A stretch of DNA of 32,000 bases from a virus: IMG/VR virus record IMGVR_UViG_3300047649_000007, positions 2,366-34,365 of that record; one strand, given 5' to 3'. The notes below the pieces were generated by a model, which made no database searches, was not told where the DNA came from, and saw only the letters and a list, made by a program, of their open reading frames with translations. Positions within the stretch are counted from its first letter, which is position 1. The number at the start of each line of letters is the position of its first letter. A program made the translations under genes and the position numbers. Of this stretch, positions 3,897 to 19,601 are shown one piece after another.

Positions 3897-4664
3897 TCAA
3901 AATAGCCTTGTTTGAGCTTCTAACAATTCCAAATTGAGCATTTTTTCTTTTGACTCCTTGAAGAAACTTTTAGAAATCTCAAATCCATAACTTTTCCTGT
4001 TAAGTTCATAAGCGGCTCGGAGTGTTGTTCCACTTCCTGCGCACGGGTCAATAACAACATCGTTTTCGTCTGTAAAGATGCTTATTAACTGTTTCAGCAG
4101 CGCAACTGGCTTTTGATTTGGGTGTATTTTGGGGTAATCATTCGCATTGTCTTTTTTCCAGTTAAACCAATCAAAAACCATTTTTCCGTTGTTGTTGAAT
4201 TTTGGGAGTTTATCGCGGTAAAGAACTATTGCGTGTTCTGTAGCTCCGACAACTTTCATGTTAGCTTTAAGTACCTGAGCAGAATAGTTTTTAATAAAGA
4301 AAATAGGGTAGCTGTGATTAAACCCATGCTTTTTACCATATTCAGCTACCATGCTCGCCTGTTGAAATGAGCAAAATACAATCATTGCGGGTGATTTTCC
4401 ACACTCTTTAGGCTCTTTTTTTAACAGTCTGTTACAAAAGTGAAAGTATTCGGCAATGTTGAAGTTAAAATCAGTATTAAAAAATGCTTTTCCTGCTTTT
4501 TTGCTTGCTCCATTTTTGTTATCACCATCAACATACCATTCAGGGCTTGAAGCATAAGCATAATTTCCGAGGTTATACGGTATATCGGCAATGACAAGTT
4601 GCGCTTTTGGAATGTTATATCGCTTATAATTTTGAAAGTTGTCGTTGAACAATTCAGCTTTCAC
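3897..4664 (-). CDS. N6-adenine/N4-cytosine DNA methyltransferase (beta-class motif order)
   Basis: VIADIPYNLG (DPPY-type motif IV) near N-terminus; VVIDPCAGSGTTLRAA (motif I) near C-terminus. Confidence 0.85.
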   Translation of the reverse strand: MKAELFNDNFQNYKRYNIPKAQLVIADIPYNLGNYAYASSPEWYVDGDNKNGASKKAGKAFFNTDFNFNIAEYFHFCNRLLKKEPKECGKSPAMIVFCSFQQASMVAEYGKKHGFNHSYPIFFIKNYSAQVLKANMKVVGATEHAIVLYRDKLPKFNNNGKMVFDWFNWKKDNANDYPKIHPNQKPVALLKQLISIFTDENDVVIDPCAGSGTTLRAAYELNRKSYGFEISKSFFKESKEKMLNLELLEAQTRLF

Positions 4665-5964: not shown

Positions 5965-6444
5965 TCAATTATCATTTTTGGCTATTTCAGATTTCATAAA
6001 TACAAGCCAATGAGTTTTACTGCGTTGGTCTCCGAACAAAGGTTTTTGTTCAATTAAATCAAGTATTTGTTTAAGCTTTATTTGTTCCTCATTCCATTTG
6101 AAAATCAGAACTCCAAAAGGTTCAAGCACTCGCATACACTCGTTAAACCCTTGTTTTATATCTTGTGGCCATGAATCATTTAATTTGCCATACTTCTTGG
6201 CCATCCACGAACTTTCACCGATTTTGAGTAAATGTGGCGGGTCGAAAACAACAAGTTTGAATGTTTCAGACGGAAACGGAATGTTGCGAAAATCTGCAAT
6301 AACATCTGGGCTGATTACAAGTTTTCGGTTGTCACATAATGTATCTTCAAGTTTTCTGTTGTCCATAAAAATCGTATTTTTATTTTGCTTATCAAACCAA
6401 AACATGCGACTTCCACAACAAGCATCCAATATAGTTTTATCCAT
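5965..6444 (-). CDS. small SAM-dependent (probable DNA) methyltransferase
   Basis: ILDACCGSRMF (motif I-like) and VVFDPPH (DPPY/H-type catalytic motif); bracketed by ttggctatttcag repeats. Confidence 0.65.
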   Translation of the reverse strand: MDKTILDACCGSRMFWFDKQNKNTIFMDNRKLEDTLCDNRKLVISPDVIADFRNIPFPSETFKLVVFDPPHLLKIGESSWMAKKYGKLNDSWPQDIKQGFNECMRVLEPFGVLIFKWNEEQIKLKQILDLIEQKPLFGDQRSKTHWLVFMKSEIAKNDN

Positions 6445-6845: not shown

Positions 6846-7247
6846 TTATAATTCTGCGATTTTACTGTTTTCTGCGCTCTGTGAAACTGTTTCACCATTC
6901 ATATCTATTTCAACACGCTCACCCTCATAATAGGTTGGGTAATTTGCCAAAACCTCATTTATCTTTTCCTCGTTTAAAACTTCTTTGAGGGCATCACATA
7001 CATTTTCTTTCCAATCCTCATACATTTCATCTGCTAAATTTTCAAGAATGCTGTCAAAGTCAAAACGTGCCACTAGAGGGTCAGCAACTGTGACTTCGGG
7101 AATTGTGGTAAAATCCTTTTTATCCATATCAAGAAATTCAGAACTGTTTAAAAAGTCTTCTTTGTCCATAACTCCCAAATCACGACCTGCCATCTGAACG
7201 CAAAGCATAGTATTGTTGCTTAACTCCGATAATTTAATTGTTACCAT
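6846..7247 (-). CDS. acidic hypothetical protein
   Basis: 133 aa, very D/E-rich (DKEDFLNSSEFLDMDKKDF, DEMYEDWKEN); sits between methyltransferase genes. Confidence 0.5.
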   Translation of the reverse strand: MVTIKLSELSNNTMLCVQMAGRDLGVMDKEDFLNSSEFLDMDKKDFTTIPEVTVADPLVARFDFDSILENLADEMYEDWKENVCDALKEVLNEEKINEVLANYPTYYEGERVEIDMNGETVSQSAENSKIAEL

Positions 7248-7312
7248 TACAAACCTCTCTCCGCCCTTACAGGCTACAAAATATTTTATGGTGTGATTCT
7301 GTGGTTATTGGG

Positions 7313-8389
7313 TTATCGCGCGGTGCGAGGTGAATTTGAGGGGTTACATACACCTTGACGCTCTATCTCTGCAATTGCTTTGAAAATGGGATATGCCTGT
7401 TGGGGTACAACTGCATTGCCTAAGCATTTAAGTCTGTCCACCCGATTGGGAACCCCTGAAGCCACTCTACCCACGTTGGGTTCAACTGCCCACCAGTTTG
7501 AACCACTACCGACGCTAAATCCTTTTGATTCTGACCTAGCATGTATTTCCCCGCTGTATTCTCGCTGTCGTGTGGGCGGGGTGTTGTTGGTGTCGGGTAA
7601 AGTGACACTGCTGTCGCTAGTGCATTTCCTTGCTGAATCCCTCTCGGATTGTTCGGATTTTTCCCAGGACCACCGGCCGATGCTCTTGGTGTTGGCCACA
7701 TTCTCACTGCAGTTGCTAATCCGTCTCCCGATGATTTCGACAGGCCTTTGCAATTGTAATTTCCGTTCAATGTCGGGGTCGGCCACATCTTCATACACTT
7801 TGGAGGTTCCCCGATTGGAGCAACTTTCACTTGTACTGATAGTTTCGGCTCTCCACGACTGTTGTGTGCAAATGTCCTGTTTGCTGAATCCCCCGCCTCT
7901 GGTGTACGCCACAAAGAAGAACCGTTCTCGTCTATGTTTTGCTCCGACAGCCGCAGCTTCATAATTGAATATCCCGACTTCGTAGCCCTCATGCTCCATG
8001 TCCTTGCAAACGTCGTCAGCGGCAATGTGCAAGATTCCAGGTACATTCTCACCGATGATATAATCCGGATGTAATTCTCGGATAACTCGGAGCATTTCGG
8101 GCCACAAGTACCGGTTGTCCTCTTTTCCTTTTTGCTTTCCGGCCACGGAAAAGGGCTGGCAGGGGAAACCACCTGAAATAATGTCAACTGTTCGTAATCC
8201 TGTTCGCTCATAAAAACTATCTCCTGTCAGTGTGCGAATATCTTTCCACCTCGGCACATCCGGCCAATGCTTTTCTAAAACTTTTGTTGGATAATCTGCC
8301 CATTCGCATTGCCCAACTGTTGTAAATCCTGCCCATTCAGCAGCCAAATCTAAGCCGCCGCTAAATACCAGAAAACAGACTGAGATGAG
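7313..8389 (-). CDS. DNA cytosine-5 methyltransferase (frame A; start codon unresolved)
   Basis: FSGGLDL (motif I), GGFPCQPFS (IV), ENVPG (VI), RRERFFFVA (VIII), LGNAVVPQ (X). First canonical start (TTG 8347) lies downstream of motif I; ORF is open back to the HNH stop at 8390. Confidence 0.8.
   Translation of the reverse strand, partial: LISVCFLVFSGGLDLAAEWAGFTTVGQCEWADYPTKVLEKHWPDVPRWKDIRTLTGDSFYERTGLRTVDIISGGFPCQPFSVAGKQKGKEDNRYLWPEMLRVIRELHPDYIIGENVPGILHIAADDVCKDMEHEGYEVGIFNYEAAAVGAKHRRERFFFVAYTRGGGFSKQDICTQQSWRAETISTSESCSNRGTSKVYEDVADPDIERKLQLQRPVEIIGRRISNCSENVANTKSIGRWSWEKSEQSERDSARKCTSDSSVTLPDTNNTPPTRQREYSGEIHARSESKGFSVGSGSNWWAVEPNVGRVASGVPNRVDRLKCLGNAVVPQQAYPIFKAIAEIERQGVCNPSNSPRTAR
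7420..8211 (-). CDS. 263-aa ORF overprinted in the +1 frame of the C5-MTase gene (WPTP-repeat protein)
   Basis: AGGAG 9 nt upstream of ATG 8211; LWRTPEAGD/MWPTPTLNG/MWPTPRASA/LYPTPTTPR repeats; C-terminal LNPTWVEWLQGFPIGWTDL; repeat copies differ only at this frame's synonymous sites. Confidence 0.5.
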   Translation of the reverse strand: MSEQDYEQLTLFQVVSPASPFPWPESKKEKRTTGTCGPKCSELSENYIRIISSVRMYLESCTLPLTTFARTWSMRATKSGYSIMKLRLSEQNIDENGSSLWRTPEAGDSANRTFAHNSRGEPKLSVQVKVAPIGEPPKCMKMWPTPTLNGNYNCKGLSKSSGDGLATAVRMWPTPRASAGGPGKNPNNPRGIQQGNALATAVSLYPTPTTPRPHDSENTAGKYMLGQNQKDLASVVVQTGGQLNPTWVEWLQGFPIGWTDLNA

Positions 8390-8959
8390 TCAGCTTATTT
8401 TTTGGCATTTGGCATCACCTCTTCTCATTTCGTTGTGTAGTTCCATATGACTTGCATATGTCATGATTACAAGGTTTTCAGGTCTATTGTCATTTTTAAT
8501 TCCGTTAATGTGATGCACAACCTCGGATTTTGGGTTTCCAGTGCCGAACCATTTAAGAGAACGCCCAATCATTTGTTCGGCTACAATAATGTGTTCAAAA
8601 ACATATCCTGAAATATCTGCTCTCGGATGCTCAGGCTGTGTTAGTAACACGTACCCAGCACGATTTTTAATTTTGCCGCCTTTCCAATACGAATTGAGTT
8701 CTCCAAATTGATTTCTTTTAGCGGGAATTCTTGCTTTAATTCCATTAACTTTCATGTGATTCCAAATTACTTTTTGAGACACTCCAAGTTCTTTCGCAAT
8801 TTCACATTGCGTCATTCCGCCCTCATACATTTGCCTTACCTTTCCTGTGTCGAGTGGAGTTATAAGCCTGTTTCTTGTATTTTCACGCCACGTTGACGTG
8901 CACCTTAATTTTGCTGATTTAGACATTCTGTCTTTAGTTTCTTTTGAAAGATGATACAT
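8390..8959 (-). CDS. HNH homing-type endonuclease with N-terminal HTH
   Basis: MTQCEIAKELGVSQKVIWNHM (HTH) plus YVFEHIIVAE...VVHHINGIKNDNRPENLVIMTYASHMELH (HNH); own GGAGG RBS and promoter. Confidence 0.8.
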   Translation of the reverse strand: MYHLSKETKDRMSKSAKLRCTSTWRENTRNRLITPLDTGKVRQMYEGGMTQCEIAKELGVSQKVIWNHMKVNGIKARIPAKRNQFGELNSYWKGGKIKNRAGYVLLTQPEHPRADISGYVFEHIIVAEQMIGRSLKWFGTGNPKSEVVHHINGIKNDNRPENLVIMTYASHMELHNEMRRGDAKCQKIS

Positions 8960-8994
8960 TTTACGTCCTCCGTGTAGTTTATTTATCTTACCTT

Positions 8995-9046
8995 ATTATA
9001 CCACAAACTACATGTAGTTGCAAGGTAAACAAAGGTATGATATAAT
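8995..9046. promoter_or_regulatory. back-to-back promoters sharing one palindromic -35 (TTGCAA), plus a 14-bp operator palindrome
   Basis: Plus: TTGCAA(9018-9023)-17-TGaTATAAT(9041-9046). Minus: the same TTGCAA-17-TGgTATAAT (9000-8995). AACTACATGTAGTT palindrome at 9006-9019. Confidence 0.6.
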
Positions 9047-9066
9047 ACTTTTTGAGGTGTAAAAAA

Positions 9067-9234
9067 ATGAATAGTAGAGGATTAAAGACGCGAGTTCCGC
9101 TGTCTAATTCCATAGATAAGGATTTATCAGAAAAGTTAAAAGCGCTGTCAAATGAAACTATGATTCCAATGTCAAAATTGCTTGATAAGGCAATAGCATT
9201 ACTCTTGAATGAATACTCTAAGGCTGCAAAATAG
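9067..9234 (+). CDS. ribbon-helix-helix (CopG/Arc-like) DNA-binding protein
   Basis: MNSRGLKTRVPLSNSIDKDLSEKLKALSNETMIPMSKLLDKAIALLL fits beta-helixA-helixB; GAGGTG 7 nt upstream; opposite strand to the surrounding operon. Confidence 0.6.
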   Translation: MNSRGLKTRVPLSNSIDKDLSEKLKALSNETMIPMSKLLDKAIALLLNEYSKAAK

Positions 9235-9249
9235 CAGCCTTATTTTTTT
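9221..9249 (+). terminator. rho-independent terminator after the RHH gene
   Basis: AGGCTGC-aaaata-GCAGCCT stem followed by TATTTTTTT. Confidence 0.65.
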
Positions 9250-9321
9250 ACACCAATTCCTGTAAAAAGTGATAAATGTGTCACATCAACACCTCATAAG
9301 ATTTTCTACACCTCAACTGCA

Positions 9322-9915
9322 TCAAATCCTTGCCTCCACTCGTTGTTTTGCCTCTGCAAGCAAATTATCGAGCGGCACAGTGTTTCTCTCTGCCAGTCTT
9401 GCAACATCAGCTTGCACTATTCCCGGCAATCGTCCAAACTCTGCCTGTGCCTTTGACTGCTTTTCATAGTTGGTCAAAAATCGGGTTTGTGCGAAGTTTT
9501 CAAATTCACTTTCCTCCGACATTGCCCAACTTCTTAATTGTGCCTTATCGCCTACAACACGCCTTACAAGCGCAGGGAGAGCATTAAAGGCTCGAGTATA
9601 ATCGTAACCGCCTTGCATGTATTCGCCCTGCTGAACGGCTTTACGGACTAACTGCCACGCTTCTATGCCTGACACTTGACTAGACTCGTCCATTTTGCTT
9701 ATGTATTCCTTGATTTCTGCGATGGACGGTTGCCACTTGCTATTGACAATGTGGAGAGTAACAGCAGCTTTAACTTTTTCAACTGGGGTATCTGAAAACA
9801 TTGATTGCCATAAAGAAATTGTTGCGTCAACCTCTTGGTCTGTCATATCTTTATAGGCTCGGGGGTAAGCAGTCGATAAAACTGTAAAAATAGCTGTTGT
9901 TTCAATGTCATTCAT
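9322..9915 (-). CDS. helicase-loader-like protein (SPP1 G39P family by eye)
   Basis: N-terminal IFTVLSTAYPRAY...ISLWQSMFSDTPVEKVKAAVTLHIVNSKWQPSIAEIKEYI resembles G39P; directly downstream of the replisome organiser. Confidence 0.55.
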   Translation of the reverse strand: MNDIETTAIFTVLSTAYPRAYKDMTDQEVDATISLWQSMFSDTPVEKVKAAVTLHIVNSKWQPSIAEIKEYISKMDESSQVSGIEAWQLVRKAVQQGEYMQGGYDYTRAFNALPALVRRVVGDKAQLRSWAMSEESEFENFAQTRFLTNYEKQSKAQAEFGRLPGIVQADVARLAERNTVPLDNLLAEAKQRVEARI

Positions 9916-10825
9916 TTTGTTTCTCCCTCAACCTGTCGGCGAATCGGTTTCCGGTACTCTGCGCCCCGGGACCTGTGCTGTTACCTGACTTGTTATCATA
10001 ATTTCCCTCGAGTGTTTTGGTCATATTATCGTCATTGAGAAGCCAATCGAACGTAGCAGACCAGTTACGCGGATTAGTACCCTTTAAAAATTCACTTGCT
10101 TCGGCTTTTTCAAAAAGTTCTTTAAATTTATCAATGTCGTGGTATTTTACCCACCGTGCATGAATAGCCTTTTTTCGTTCCGCAGATAAAGTTTGAATTT
10201 TTGGGTAAGAAACACAAACGGTAAGAAAAAGGTTTTTAATATCTTCATAAGGTGTTACATCGGATTTTGGAGGTGGTTCATCCGGTGGCTTGTCCGCCGC
10301 GTTTCCTGCTAGTGATCCTTCTACTGGATACGGGATACTGTTACTGGATACGGGATACGGTACATCGATATCCCTTGCCATGCCATTCGATAGGGTATCG
10401 ATAGGGCATCGATATGGTATCAATAGGGTATCAAAAAGTTGTAGATAGTGCTTGCAATGGGTTTCAACACACTCTAAAAATTCATTGACAAGTGCAGGAT
10501 TAACACTGCCAAGTTTCATGTCGCTAAGCCGTTTTATTGCGCCTTTGGCTTGTTTTTCGTTGTTGAGTGGATTGTATTTCAAGAACTTTTTTACAAGCAC
10601 ATAATCGCCTAGATAACTAACCATGCCGTTGCTTATAAGCTCTTTCATAAGTTCTAAAATTTTGGATTCATTAAATCCCGTGTCGCTTGAAATGTACTTG
10701 ATTGTTAGCCGGTAAAGTCCAACCATGTTCCGATGGGGAGAAGAAAAGAGGTAAATGAATAGCAATTTAGCCTCAACACTTAAAGCACAAAATTTTTCAT
10801 CCTCCCATATAGAACTTTCAATCAT
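9908..10825 (-). CDS. phage replisome organiser / DnaD-like replication initiator
   Basis: N-terminal SIWEDEKFCALSVEAKLLFIYL; C-terminal LSAERKKAIHARW...SEFLKGTNPRNWSATFDWLL...EGNYDN (conserved phage C-terminus pattern); iterons inside the gene. Confidence 0.7.
   Translation of the reverse strand: MIESSIWEDEKFCALSVEAKLLFIYLFSSPHRNMVGLYRLTIKYISSDTGFNESKILELMKELISNGMVSYLGDYVLVKKFLKYNPLNNEKQAKGAIKRLSDMKLGSVNPALVNEFLECVETHCKHYLQLFDTLLIPYRCPIDTLSNGMARDIDVPYPVSSNSIPYPVEGSLAGNAADKPPDEPPPKSDVTPYEDIKNLFLTVCVSYPKIQTLSAERKKAIHARWVKYHDIDKFKELFEKAEASEFLKGTNPRNWSATFDWLLNDDNMTKTLEGNYDNKSGNSTGPGAQSTGNRFADRLREKQNE
10322..10432. repeat. iteron cluster (candidate replication origin) inside the organiser gene
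   Basis: tactggatacgggatac twice (10322-10338, 10342-10358); then four tandem 11-mers tcgatagggta/tcgatagggca/tcgatatggta/tcaatagggta (10387-10430); inverted atcgatatccc between them. Confidence 0.6.
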
Positions 10826-12349: not shown

Positions 12350-12604
12350 CTATAAATAATTTTTACCAAATATTTTTAAGAAACTTTCGCCGGGATGTTC
12401 ATCCTCAAACTTCTGCTGAAACTCACGTTTTAACCTTAATTCATTTTCTCGATTAAAATGGATGCCGTTTGGTGGTTCATTGTGGCAAAAGTGGCAGAGG
12501 TCAACTACAAGTCCAAACTTTTCAGAATTTTTCTTGTTTGATGCTCCAAAAACATGGTGAGATTCAATCCAATATGTAGAGCCACAAAGCCAGCACTCTC
12601 TCAT
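12350..12604 (-). CDS. small Cys/His nuclease-like protein (NinG/HNH-like)
   Basis: MRECWLCGS...ESHHVFG...LCHFCHNEPPNGIH; ATGA overlap with upstream gene. Confidence 0.45.
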   Translation of the reverse strand: MRECWLCGSTYWIESHHVFGASNKKNSEKFGLVVDLCHFCHNEPPNGIHFNRENELRLKREFQQKFEDEHPGESFLKIFGKNYL

Positions 12605-13134
12605 TCTCCCCACGCATTCGTTAACCGCGATAATTCATCCGGTGTCATGGTTTCAATGCCTTGTTCCTTGCAATCCTGCACCAAAAGCTCGATTAGCCTT
12701 GACATTTGAAGCGTGTCATATGTAGAGGAACCGTAATAGCAAATGATGTTCTTATAACCCTCTAATTTGCTCTCACAGAGCTCCTCACACACCCACCCTT
12801 TACCGTGTAGTTTCCAGTTTTTAATCCATTGCTCGGCGGCATCAGAGCGAATAGGAACAATCTGAAAATTGTCTCCGATTTCTCGTATATACTCACGGTA
12901 AAGATCAGTTGTTGAAGCATGTAAGACAGCGGCAAGCTTACCAATAAGCACCCAAAAATAAGAATTGGCATCACGGGAGCGTTTTTCTCGGTATTCCTTG
13001 ATATCTGCAACATAGAGTTTGTTAAGCATATTTGAAACAAAATCTTTTGCAAATTGAGGGATCTTAACTCTTAAAGACAGCCAAAATCCCTCGTTGTCCT
13101 GTGACCACTTCACACGGTCAAATTGGATGGTCAT
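12601..13134 (-). CDS. recombination-module protein (putative nuclease family, uncertain)
   Basis: EKRSRDANSYFWVLIGKLAAVL resembles the RSxxxNxYxW signature of HNHc_6-type phage proteins (from memory); lies between erf and ssb. Confidence 0.45.
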   Translation of the reverse strand: MTIQFDRVKWSQDNEGFWLSLRVKIPQFAKDFVSNMLNKLYVADIKEYREKRSRDANSYFWVLIGKLAAVLHASTTDLYREYIREIGDNFQIVPIRSDAAEQWIKNWKLHGKGWVCEELCESKLEGYKNIICYYGSSTYDTLQMSRLIELLVQDCKEQGIETMTPDELSRLTNAWGE

Positions 13135-18509: not shown

Positions 18510-19601
18510 TCAAAATAACCTTGTTTGTGATTTTACCGATTCAAGCTGTTCCGCTTTGCGCCGAGCATCCTTGTATTCGTTGTACTGTTGCCTATACCTG
18601 TAGCTATCGCCAAACACATTCCATGCGGCCTTTACCAAATTTGGCTCATACGGTCGAATCTTTTCTAAATCCTTTACCGCTCTCGCCGAAATAGAACATC
18701 CACAGCAACCTGTGCGCGTAAGACCATATACCTCATAGGCGTCAGAATAGCGAATCCCATAGTATTTTTTATACCATTGTTTATCAGCATCAGACGCATA
18801 AAACAGAGGTCGAAGTCTATATTTTCCGTCAGCCGCTTCGGAAAAGCACATTGATGTATTGTCTTTGCGTGGAACAGATCGCATACCACCTTCGTCACGC
18901 CGTTCTCCGGTGATTACCATGTCAAATGGCTTTTGAACGCTATGTGCGAGATTCTTTTTACAGTATGTACAGCATTTGTTACTTACTCGGAACGGGATCG
19001 GATTTTCCTTGATAAAATCCAGCATATATTTTGAAGAATTTATGACCAATTGTATATCCGGTCGTGGCTCACCTTTCGAGTTACACCCACACAAAAAATT
19101 AATTGTTGATTCGCATTTTGGGTAGCGTTCGCGAAGTTCCGCGCGCTTTGCCATTTTATTCTCTGTCTCTGCGTACTCGTCAGCAATCGATAGTGGAATA
19201 TTTTTCTTTTGGACACCCTCCAATCCAGCAGACATAATTTTGGACACAAACGGCTGTCCATACTCTCGCGTTGCCAACACTATATTTTTCTTGGGTCGGT
19301 ATTCGGTGATTGTGACCCCATACAGTGCCTCCGTTTCGTGAACATGACGCTTTATTGCGTCCATCTCAAGTCCTGTATTAAAAAAACAGTACTGGACGGC
19401 CGGAAGATTAAATGTTTTGCGCACTGTCTCAATGAGATGCAGCATGATGTCGCTGTCGCTCCCACCTGAATATGAACATATCGCGTTAGGATGCTCATGC
19501 AGCCTTTTTGCGATTATGCTTTTAATGGCTTCAAATTTGGCTGGAGCATCAAAGTCTGCATATGCCGGGCGGTCTGTGTATACCTTGCTTTTATATTCCA
19601 T
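18510..19601 (-). CDS. PAPS-reductase-like PP-loop enzyme with C-terminal Cys cluster
   Basis: SYSGGSDSDIML (SGGxDS PP-loop), ...VITGERRDEGGMR..., LTRTGCCGCSIS. Confidence 0.75.
   Translation of the reverse strand: MEYKSKVYTDRPAYADFDAPAKFEAIKSIIAKRLHEHPNAICSYSGGSDSDIMLHLIETVRKTFNLPAVQYCFFNTGLEMDAIKRHVHETEALYGVTITEYRPKKNIVLATREYGQPFVSKIMSAGLEGVQKKNIPLSIADEYAETENKMAKRAELRERYPKCESTINFLCGCNSKGEPRPDIQLVINSSKYMLDFIKENPIPFRVSNKCCTYCKKNLAHSVQKPFDMVITGERRDEGGMRSVPRKDNTSMCFSEAADGKYRLRPLFYASDADKQWYKKYYGIRYSDAYEVYGLTRTGCCGCSISARAVKDLEKIRPYEPNLVKAAWNVFGDSYRYRQQYNEYKDARRKAEQLESVKSQTRLF

Follow-up and report, generated by a model that had tools for sequence, protein, structure and literature searches.

The DNA described here, called the window in the following, is a stretch of 32,000 nucleotides (nt) from a virus (IMG/VR record IMGVR_UViG_3300047649_000007, positions 2,366 to 34,365), and the element in question is a C5-cytosine DNA methyltransferase gene in which two long reading frames lie on top of each other. 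All features of the methylase locus are on the minus strand. The first reading, frame A, contains the methyltransferase motifs, and the second, frame B, is nested inside it in the +1 frame; the products are called alpha and beta. Both open reading frames (ORFs) are maintained by selection, and the frame on which selection acts changes along the gene.

Frame A (7313..8359) forms the main body of alpha, the large domain of a C5-methyltransferase (PF00145, 6.9e-34; phrog_363, 1e-71). It begins with GGLDLAAEWAGF directly after a small insert which is treated below, and the program-made ORF listing gives it as open over 8347..7313, i.e., 344 amino acids (aa), with the stop codon at 7315-7313. The PF00145 match has a score of 118 bits where the gathering score is 22, the catalytic cysteine in PCQ is present, and there are more than 8000 PF00145 homologues. 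Motif IV (GGFPCQPFS, 8173-8147), motif VI (ENVPG, 8050-8036), motif VIII (RRERFFFVA, 7933-7907) and motif X (LGNAVVPQ, 7423-7400) are read in frame A as they were in a preliminary description of this DNA; the motif I which was read there as FSGGLDL is broken by an insert, TAGC. Motif VIII is followed by a linker of ~130 aa rich in S, R, E and D, then by WWAVEPNVGRVASGVPNRVDRL and then by motif X, and the C-terminal part reads WWAVEPNVGRVASGVPNRVDRLKCLGNAVVPQ up to the stop codon.

Frame B starts with ATG at 8211 and ends with TAG at 7422-7420 (7420..8211). It runs for 263 codons without a stop and lies wholly within frame A (8359-7313). A Shine-Dalgarno sequence, AGGAG (8221..8225), is found 9 nt before the ATG, within the alpha codons for T-G-D-S-F-Y. 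The N-terminal part of beta is an extension which covers motifs IV-VIII; it is followed by four W/Y-PTP repeats (LWRTPEAGD, MWPTPTLNG, MWPTPRASA and LYPTPTTPR) and by a C-terminal motif IX-like segment, LNPTWVEWLQGFPIGWTDL; its C-terminal end is LNPTWVEWLQGFPIGWTDLNA. The repeats occupy a variable, putative target-recognition region (7492..7914) in which frame A is S/R/E/D-rich and reads VADP, VANT and LPDT. Two copies of the repeat unit LATAV (tta gca act gca gtg and cta gcg aca gca gtg) differ solely at sites which are synonymous in frame B. The frame, its length, its start signals, the four repeats and the LATAV comparison had all been part of the preliminary description; since they were re-read as stated, the sequence-level observation is correct with motif I as the one exception.

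Frame B has a large family of its own. A homologue search gave 5154 proteins at E<=1e-3, and the best of them, which have 170-290 aa and no Pfam domain, match 100% of the query with 45-51% identity; nearly all of these start M-x-x-Q-D-Y-E-Q-L-T-L-F. The HMMER search proposed earlier was run against 1.84 billion representatives and gave 11,084 matches at E<=1e-3 and 2,409 at E<=1e-10, counted at the 50% identity level. The PHROGs entry for the family is phrog_1008, which is annotated 'DNA methyltransferase' (1.8e-22). Judged by these searches frame B is a real, large protein family. On one contig, L044, the gene called is the frame-B ORF of 272 aa, in spite of a frame A which is open for ~345 aa. 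Homologues of frame A and of frame B are both listed in numbers, so the public gene calls hold both readings of the same DNA. A megablast search of the region against GenBank phages gave no match, and tblastn of frame B against phages a single partial one; a search of the literature on overlapping frames in phage cytosine methylases and on the WPTP motif found nothing relevant.

The nested pair is found far outside the window. Using frame B as query 41 IMG/VR loci were collected, and in at least 32 of them frame B is nested in +1 within a complete frame-A methylase whose motifs I to X share one frame. Six others are frame-swapped by indels (L026, L027, L035, L039, L040 and L041) and one is truncated. 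A second set was chosen by the catalytic domain of frame A alone, which avoids selection for frame B. It comprises 80 genome loci, 40-81% identical, from Oscillospiraceae, Lachnospiraceae, Bacteroidota, Paenibacillus, Proteobacteria, Acidobacteria and others; the counts below are for the 77 that contain PCQ. The +1 frame is open for at least 150 codons, and up to 387, in 72 of the 77, and the five exceptions include loci which end at a contig edge. The +2 frame reaches at most 131 codons, mostly 30-85. Frame A extends to motif X in 67 of the 77. The same layout is present in a GenBank phage (MW202733), the annotation of which lists frame A only, and in annotated plasmid genes of Paenibacillus, Salmonella and Ralstonia. 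In the homologues alpha has 250-350 aa and beta 170-290 aa, and the overlap is 500-1100 nt. The nested architecture is conserved in thousands of phage and bacterial methylase genes, each of which annotation pipelines enter as a single gene.

A second frame of this kind could in principle be created by indels in sequencing or assembly, and the odd look of one gene with three frames in use is what speaks for such an artefact. The same two-frame layout is found, however, in more than 100 independent contigs from many projects, isolate genomes included, and we regard the probability of an artefact as negligible.

Several variants join the two frames into a single ORF by indels. The join is from A to B in L026, L027, L039 and L041, and from B to A, with motif X, in L035, L040, L043/P0001, P0292 and P0293. 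In one locus, L247 (Ga0310691_10196454), a run of CA/TG dinucleotides in the variable region reads HTHTHTHTH in both frames, and this is possibly a slippage-prone tract able to toggle between them.

Whether the two frames are kept open by selection was analyzed by permuting synonymous codons in lineages with less than 85% DNA identity to each other. When the frame-A protein was kept, over a span which begins 10 codons ahead of PCQ and closes with motif VIII, 129.4 stops were expected in the +1 frame and 1 was observed, and in the +2 frame 266 were expected and 277 observed. When frame B was kept in the variable region, 159 stops were expected in frame A and none was observed, with 299 observed against 296 expected in the third frame; the loci in this second test had been pre-filtered for a frame A reaching motif X (67 of 77 without the filter), and the loci of both tests share descent, so that the stop counts are not independent events. 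Stops are avoided in each of the passenger readings and occur as expected in the third frame, and we conclude that both passenger readings are kept open by selection. It should be noted that the window by itself says less. The preliminary description had estimated the odds of frame B staying open by chance at about 1e-5 to 1e-6. This is too low for the window alone, where the chance of finding no +1 stop over motifs IV-VIII is ~0.25 given the frame-A protein; over the variable region 5.5 frame-A stops are expected. Openness in the window alone is thus less improbable than was thought, and the significance is decided by the homologues.

The substitution spectra show which frame is under selection. 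They were obtained from pairs 80-98.5% identical, and they replaced a diversity analysis of 62 lineages which was too saturated to decide. Before the overlap 78% of the substitutions are at third codon positions of frame A (A3). In the catalytic overlap the figure is 63%, with 22% at third positions of frame B (B3). In the variable region the order is reversed: 55% are at B3 and 21% at A3, which is the position that changes least. This bears out the earlier suggestion, drawn from the LATAV copies, that selection in the repeat region acts on frame B. The motif IX region has 50% at B3, and 3' of the beta stop codon 58% are again at A3. Selection along the gene switches A, A+B, B, A+B, A.

The double constraint is also seen in the frame-A synonymous rate, which was computed in blocks of 6 codons. 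It is ~0.44 before the overlap, falls to 0.16-0.18 at the start of frame B and returns to 0.32-0.50 past the frame-B stop. Over alpha codons 90-143, corresponding to beta residues 41-95, it is 0.12-0.25, and this doubly constrained stretch (7927..8091) lies over alpha motifs V-VIII. In the AlphaFold2 model of beta the same residues form a helix and a beta-hairpin with a predicted local distance difference test score (pLDDT) of 75-87, and they are the sole confidently modelled part of the beta N-terminus. The 2-3 fold drop in the alpha-synonymous rate thus coincides with the predicted folded part of beta. The check on openness and synonymous constraint in homologues, proposed in the preliminary description, therefore came out in favor of two overprinted proteins: both frames are kept open across lineages, frame B has its own ATG and Shine-Dalgarno sequence, and each frame shows purifying selection in the overlap. 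Structure prediction, which had been proposed as well, was applied to each frame. Frame A alone gives a confident catalytic domain (pLDDT ~90 for residues 1-150, and 67-92 for residues 300-335, the motif X helix), and its residues 155-295 have a pLDDT of 33-50 and no secondary structure, so the ~130-aa linker is probably disordered according to the model; frame B alone has a mean pLDDT of 59. A Foldseek search of the frame-B model against the PDB gave nothing below E = 0.68, the confidence of the model being too low.

An explanation which needs no second protein supposes that frame A alone is expressed and that frame B is open as a side effect of composition or of the repeats. Annotation pipelines do call frame A, as in P0121 ('DNA (cytosine-5)-methyltransferase 1'), MW202733 and the plasmid records, and frame A alone gives a full-length PF00145 match. 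The explanation is nevertheless very improbable in our judgment. It is at variance with the concentration of substitutions at B3 in the variable region and with the specific avoidance of frame-B stops while the +2 frame behaves as expected. It is also at variance with the predicted disorder of frame A in the variable region, and with the gene callers, which preferred frame B to the longer frame A in thousands of contigs, such as L044.

The frame-B ATG is found 16 codons 5' of PCQ in the clade of the window and at comparable positions in distant clades. In Firmicutes-type loci AAGGAG-type sites occur 7-9 nt before the homologous ATG. In Bacteroidota loci no Shine-Dalgarno site is found at the frame-B ATG; such sites are not used there.

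These start signals bear on the other possibility raised in the preliminary description, that one enzyme is assembled A to B to A by two programmed frameshifts, a +1 shift after motif VIII (e.g., at the G5 run) and a -1 shift at C-UUA-AAU before motif X. The order of the selected frames, A, B, A, is what such a chimera would use, and there are natural single-frame joins, four from A to B and those from B to A with motif X. Both candidate sites are located as described, the G5 run at 7894-7890 and CTTAAAT at 7432-7426, but they are not conserved. Just 16 of 54 lineages have CTTAAAT, and CTGAAAA, TTAAAAA and other synonymous variants are common. There is no conserved homopolymer 3' of motif VIII, the longest run being at most 4 nt in 44 of the 54, and C-UUA-AAU is not of the X-XXY-YYZ heptamer type. 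The frameshifting enzyme would need neither the ~100 upstream codons of frame B nor an open frame A through the variable region, yet both are stop-free, and it leaves the conserved frame-B Shine-Dalgarno sequence and ATG and the constraint on beta residues 41-95 unexplained. We therefore consider assembly by frameshifting improbable.

An experimental precedent for two separate polypeptides exists, which the preliminary description had not noticed. The alpha subunit of M.EcoHK31I has ~309 aa and its beta subunit ~176 aa. In this C5-methyltransferase from E. coli HK31 (Lee, Kam and Shaw, 1995, NAR 23:103) beta is encoded wholly within the alpha gene in another frame; alpha contains motifs I-VIII and X, beta contains motif IX, and both chains are required and must associate for activity (PMC2836561). 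Removal of ~42 N-terminal residues from beta weakens the association (PMC2836561, after Lee et al., 1995, and Fung et al., 2006), and this role of the beta N-terminus fits with the constraint on beta residues 41-95 found here.

Our preferred interpretation, which we hold to be likely, is that the locus codes for a C5-cytosine DNA methyltransferase of the M.EcoHK31I type, made of two polypeptides. Alpha would consist of the catalytic large domain (motifs I-VIII), a looped-out unconstrained linker and the motif X helix. Beta would be made from its own Shine-Dalgarno sequence and ATG inside the alpha gene, in the +1 frame. Its N-terminal part, overprinted on motifs IV-VIII, would contain a small folded helix-hairpin unit, and its W/L-PTP repeat array would be the real target-recognition region. 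The two chains would associate into an active enzyme in which beta supplies the small domain that alpha is without. We infer from the sequences that both ORFs are translated, that alpha and beta associate and that recognition is by beta; the recognition region is probably on the nested beta chain.

The likeness to M.EcoHK31I lies in a beta gene nested in another frame on the same strand, in the motif set of alpha (with motif I split in the window) and in comparable sizes. One difference concerns recognition. The recognition domain of M.EcoHK31I has been assigned to alpha (PMC2836561), whereas here it is the beta frame which is under selection between motifs VIII and X, and alpha is predicted to be disordered in this region. 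Variable PTP-repeat arrays on beta are found here and count as a further difference. M.EcoHK31I belongs to a restriction-modification system, whereas the present gene is part of the replication module of a prophage, and no restriction enzyme was identified adjacent to it.

The C-terminal segment of beta, LNPxWVEWLMGFPxGWT, is near-invariant among the homologues, and LNPTWVEWLQGFPIGWT in the window fits the pattern L-P-x7-G-F/Y-P, which we take, from M.HhaI, to be that of motif IX. By this pattern the segment looks like motif IX. It is part of a second doubly constrained stretch (7423..7491), in which beta GGQLNPTWVEWLQGFPIGWTDLNA lies over alpha WWAVEPNVGRVASGVPNRVDRLKC and all three codon positions change at similar rates. 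The near-invariant residues in this stretch are W286, E289, P290, R294, G298 and R302-L306 in alpha, and N244-T259 are near-invariant in beta.

A number of observations weigh against the two-polypeptide interpretation, in addition to the limits of the stop counts given above. The alpha of the window is without an intact motif I. The comparison with M.EcoHK31I is one of described architecture. Motif IX is assigned to beta by resemblance to a pattern alone, and in the alpha frame the same nucleotides read EPNVGRVASGVPNRVDRL, which is likewise conserved and has the same spacing. An artificial A-B-A chimera scores 137.9 bits against PF00145, which is no improvement on the 141.6 bits of frame A alone. 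The mean pLDDT of beta is low, as stated. Neither phmmer with frame B nor a profile of the alignment A1 finds a match among PDB sequences, and Pfam and NCBIfam give no methyltransferase match for frame B or for longer beta-type proteins.

The two motif segments, LNPxWVEWLMGFPxGWTDL of beta and EPxVGRVAxGxPxRVDRL of alpha, are encoded by one shared stretch of DNA in the window and in L001 and by two tandem stretches in L031, L043 and L176, which suggests that one of the segments was derived from the other by duplication and frameshift. Motif X is also found on a beta-type chain in the variants P0001, P0292, P0293, P0258 and L040. The proteins P0357, P0356 and P0312 are beta-like but have 380-420 aa, with a different long N-terminus (MSW-YLP...), PTP repeats and the motif IX-like segment, P0357 additionally with a motif X-like segment. 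The 'SPVSHSP' which they contain is incompatible with a +1 reading of the PCQ motif, and they may be stand-alone, non-overlapping versions of beta. In another group (P0010, P0014, P0035, P0370 and L249) motif I, and sometimes PCQ, is followed in frame by beta-type sequence without motifs VI and VIII; these could be frameshift mutants or another architecture.

Two other known arrangements may be compared. M.AquI is a C5-methyltransferase with alpha and beta subunits in which the break falls in the variable region; the N-terminal chain is catalytic and the C-terminal one contains motifs IX and X, and the two ORFs overlap by only a few tens of bases. The variants P0001, P0292, P0293 and L040, with motifs IX and X on a beta-type chain, resemble it; in the family described here, however, the overlap is 500-1100 nt and motif X is on alpha in most members. 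Overprinted phage genes such as phiX174 A*/B/K/E (reviewed in PMC8227390) likewise have a nested ORF on the same strand in +1, with its own start, inside an older gene. The nested frame described here differs from these in carrying an ancient functional module of the same enzyme and not just a de novo accessory protein, and in that the dominance of the frames alternates.

The M.EcoHK31I-type architecture is a known though obscure kind, familiar since 1995 from a single enzyme, and from the homologues it is far wider than recognized and normal in a very large clade of C5-methylases from phages and prophages. Long overlapping genes on the same strand are rare in bacteria and phages and often disputed, and the evidence for dual coding is unusually clean in this case. 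Annotation gives one of the two genes, mostly alpha, at times beta as a 'hypothetical protein'. Prediction of the specificity of these methylases should use the beta frame, the one in which selection acts on the variable PTP-repeat region. The family is also a natural model for two proteins which share DNA under conflicting constraints.

The methylase of the window differs from most of its relatives in motif I. More than 100 homologues have this motif intact and in frame, reading LFSGIGGLDL; their DNA is CTG TTT TCT GGT ATT GGC GGC without a break, and the uninterrupted form is GGTATTGGCGGC. In the window a 4-nt insert, TAGC (8360..8363), splits the motif into GGT ATT, TAGC, GGC GGC, and when it is removed in silico LFSGIGGLDL is restored. 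The first half of motif I is encoded by a mini-ORF of 15 codons, F1 (8361..8408, MPKNKLTHLSLFSGI), which has a Shine-Dalgarno sequence GAGGTG, starts with ATG at 8408 and ends GGT ATT TAG, the TAG being at 8363-8361. F1 is out of frame with frame A. Because the insert cuts motif I, the alpha of the window is inactive or in need of recoding. Seven other distinct methyltransferase genes hold TAGC, TAGT or TAGTC at the identical site: L137, L131 (on the same contig as L050), L176, L178/L180 (also L253 and L268), L247, L249 and L273. Some of these are just ~45% identical to the window in frame A.

In the window TAGC forms the 3' boundary of a cassette of 891 nt (9250-8360) in the 5' end of the methylase gene. 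The cassette contains an HNH endonuclease gene with a helix-turn-helix domain and HNH_3 (8390..8959, minus strand; PF13392, 1.1e-9), the end of which overlaps the start of F1, and this is the probable homing endonuclease of the cassette. It also contains a ribbon-helix-helix gene on the plus strand (9052..9234; RHH_3, 8.9e-17), divergent promoter-like sites (9018-9046 plus, 9023-8995 minus) and a terminator-like hairpin (9219-9242, hairpin 9241-9220). The native 5' end of the methyltransferase is left as a remnant on the other side (9251..9284, minus strand; GTG ACA CAT TTA TCA CTT TTT ACA GGA ATT GGT G, i.e., VTHLSLFTGIG), which the cassette truncates and whose frame closes with TAA at 9242-9240; its start context is as in the uninterrupted L001. 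The cassette supplies a new Shine-Dalgarno sequence, an ATG and, as F1, a second copy of the N-terminal peptide. Homologous endonuclease genes are found in the same place in L176, L178, L180 and L268, with homologous N-terminal halves for L176, L178 and L180. L176 retains the native 5' copy, and L178 and L180 are without an upstream exon copy. In L131 the endonuclease is reduced to a remnant. By motif search the endonuclease family is found beside 5 interrupted loci and beside none of ~115 uninterrupted ones. A group I or II intron was considered and rejected, as there is no Rfam match at E<=1 in 7000-9600 and the inserted DNA holds the opposite-strand ribbon-helix-helix gene with its own signals; the missing upstream exon copy in L178 and L180 speaks against it as well.

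The window methylase may simply be a dead or dying gene, its alpha knocked out by the cassette and TAGC, and we put the chances of this at about even; the open frames would then reflect an inactivation that is recent. This concerns the copy in the window and does not conflict with a two-polypeptide enzyme in the family. An in-frame TAG together with a frameshift breaks motif I. There are no matched take-off and landing codons for a ribosomal hop, AUU standing against AGC, AGU or GUC before GGC GGC, each of them one mismatch from AUC, and the RNA fold around the TAGC insert is no different from shuffled sequences (z = -1.26). Furthermore, alpha stops short of motif X in 3 of 7 interrupted alleles (L247, L249 and L273) as against 10 of the 77 uninterrupted loci. 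A dead gene does not account well for the intact alpha and beta downstream of the insert in the window, L131, L176 and L178/L180 despite considerable divergence, nor for L131, in which the endonuclease is lost but the insert and both ORFs are kept. The cassette moreover brings a Shine-Dalgarno sequence, an ATG and the N-terminal peptide, and in the latter the THLSL codons differ solely synonymously among five alleles; only these codons count, as the last four codons of F1 are biased by the search pattern.

A more speculative explanation, to which we give clearly less credence, is that the UAG inserts are an immunity scar of an HNH cassette targeting motif I DNA, and that ribosomes cross them by a short hop or by a +1/+2 shift at AUU-UAG so that alpha is still made, probably at a low level. 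In T4 gene 60 the endonuclease mobA travels with an untranslated gap which starts with UAG (bioRxiv 10.1101/2022.08.31.505936). Here too the coding gap starts with a stop codon, after the Ile of FSGIGG, and is next to an endonuclease gene; an HNH cassette in a conserved gene, a new start and a UAG-led insert at an invariant motif recur in diverged copies. The gap of gene 60 is 50 nt, however, whereas the inserts here are 4-5 nt, and here no matched codons, nascent-peptide signal or stem-loop are shown. If the explanation is true, the inserts would be the second natural family of translational bypass linked to a homing endonuclease. The endonuclease cassette with its stop-containing mini-insert is a candidate for a new phenomenon, either of recoding or of gene drive.

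The window is a temperate-phage region, and the nearest relatives are in genomes of gut Oscillospiraceae and Lachnospiraceae. It contains an integrase (23673-24770), a DnaD/O-like replication initiator (9908-10825), a NinB-like protein (12601-13134) and, on the minus strand, a PAPS-reductase-like protein of the phage early region (18510-19601; phrog_424, 9e-25). Two further DNA methyltransferase genes (3897-4664, phrog_67, and 5965-6444, phrog_954; both on the minus strand) are within 4 kb of the C5-methylase, so the prophage carries at least three methylases.

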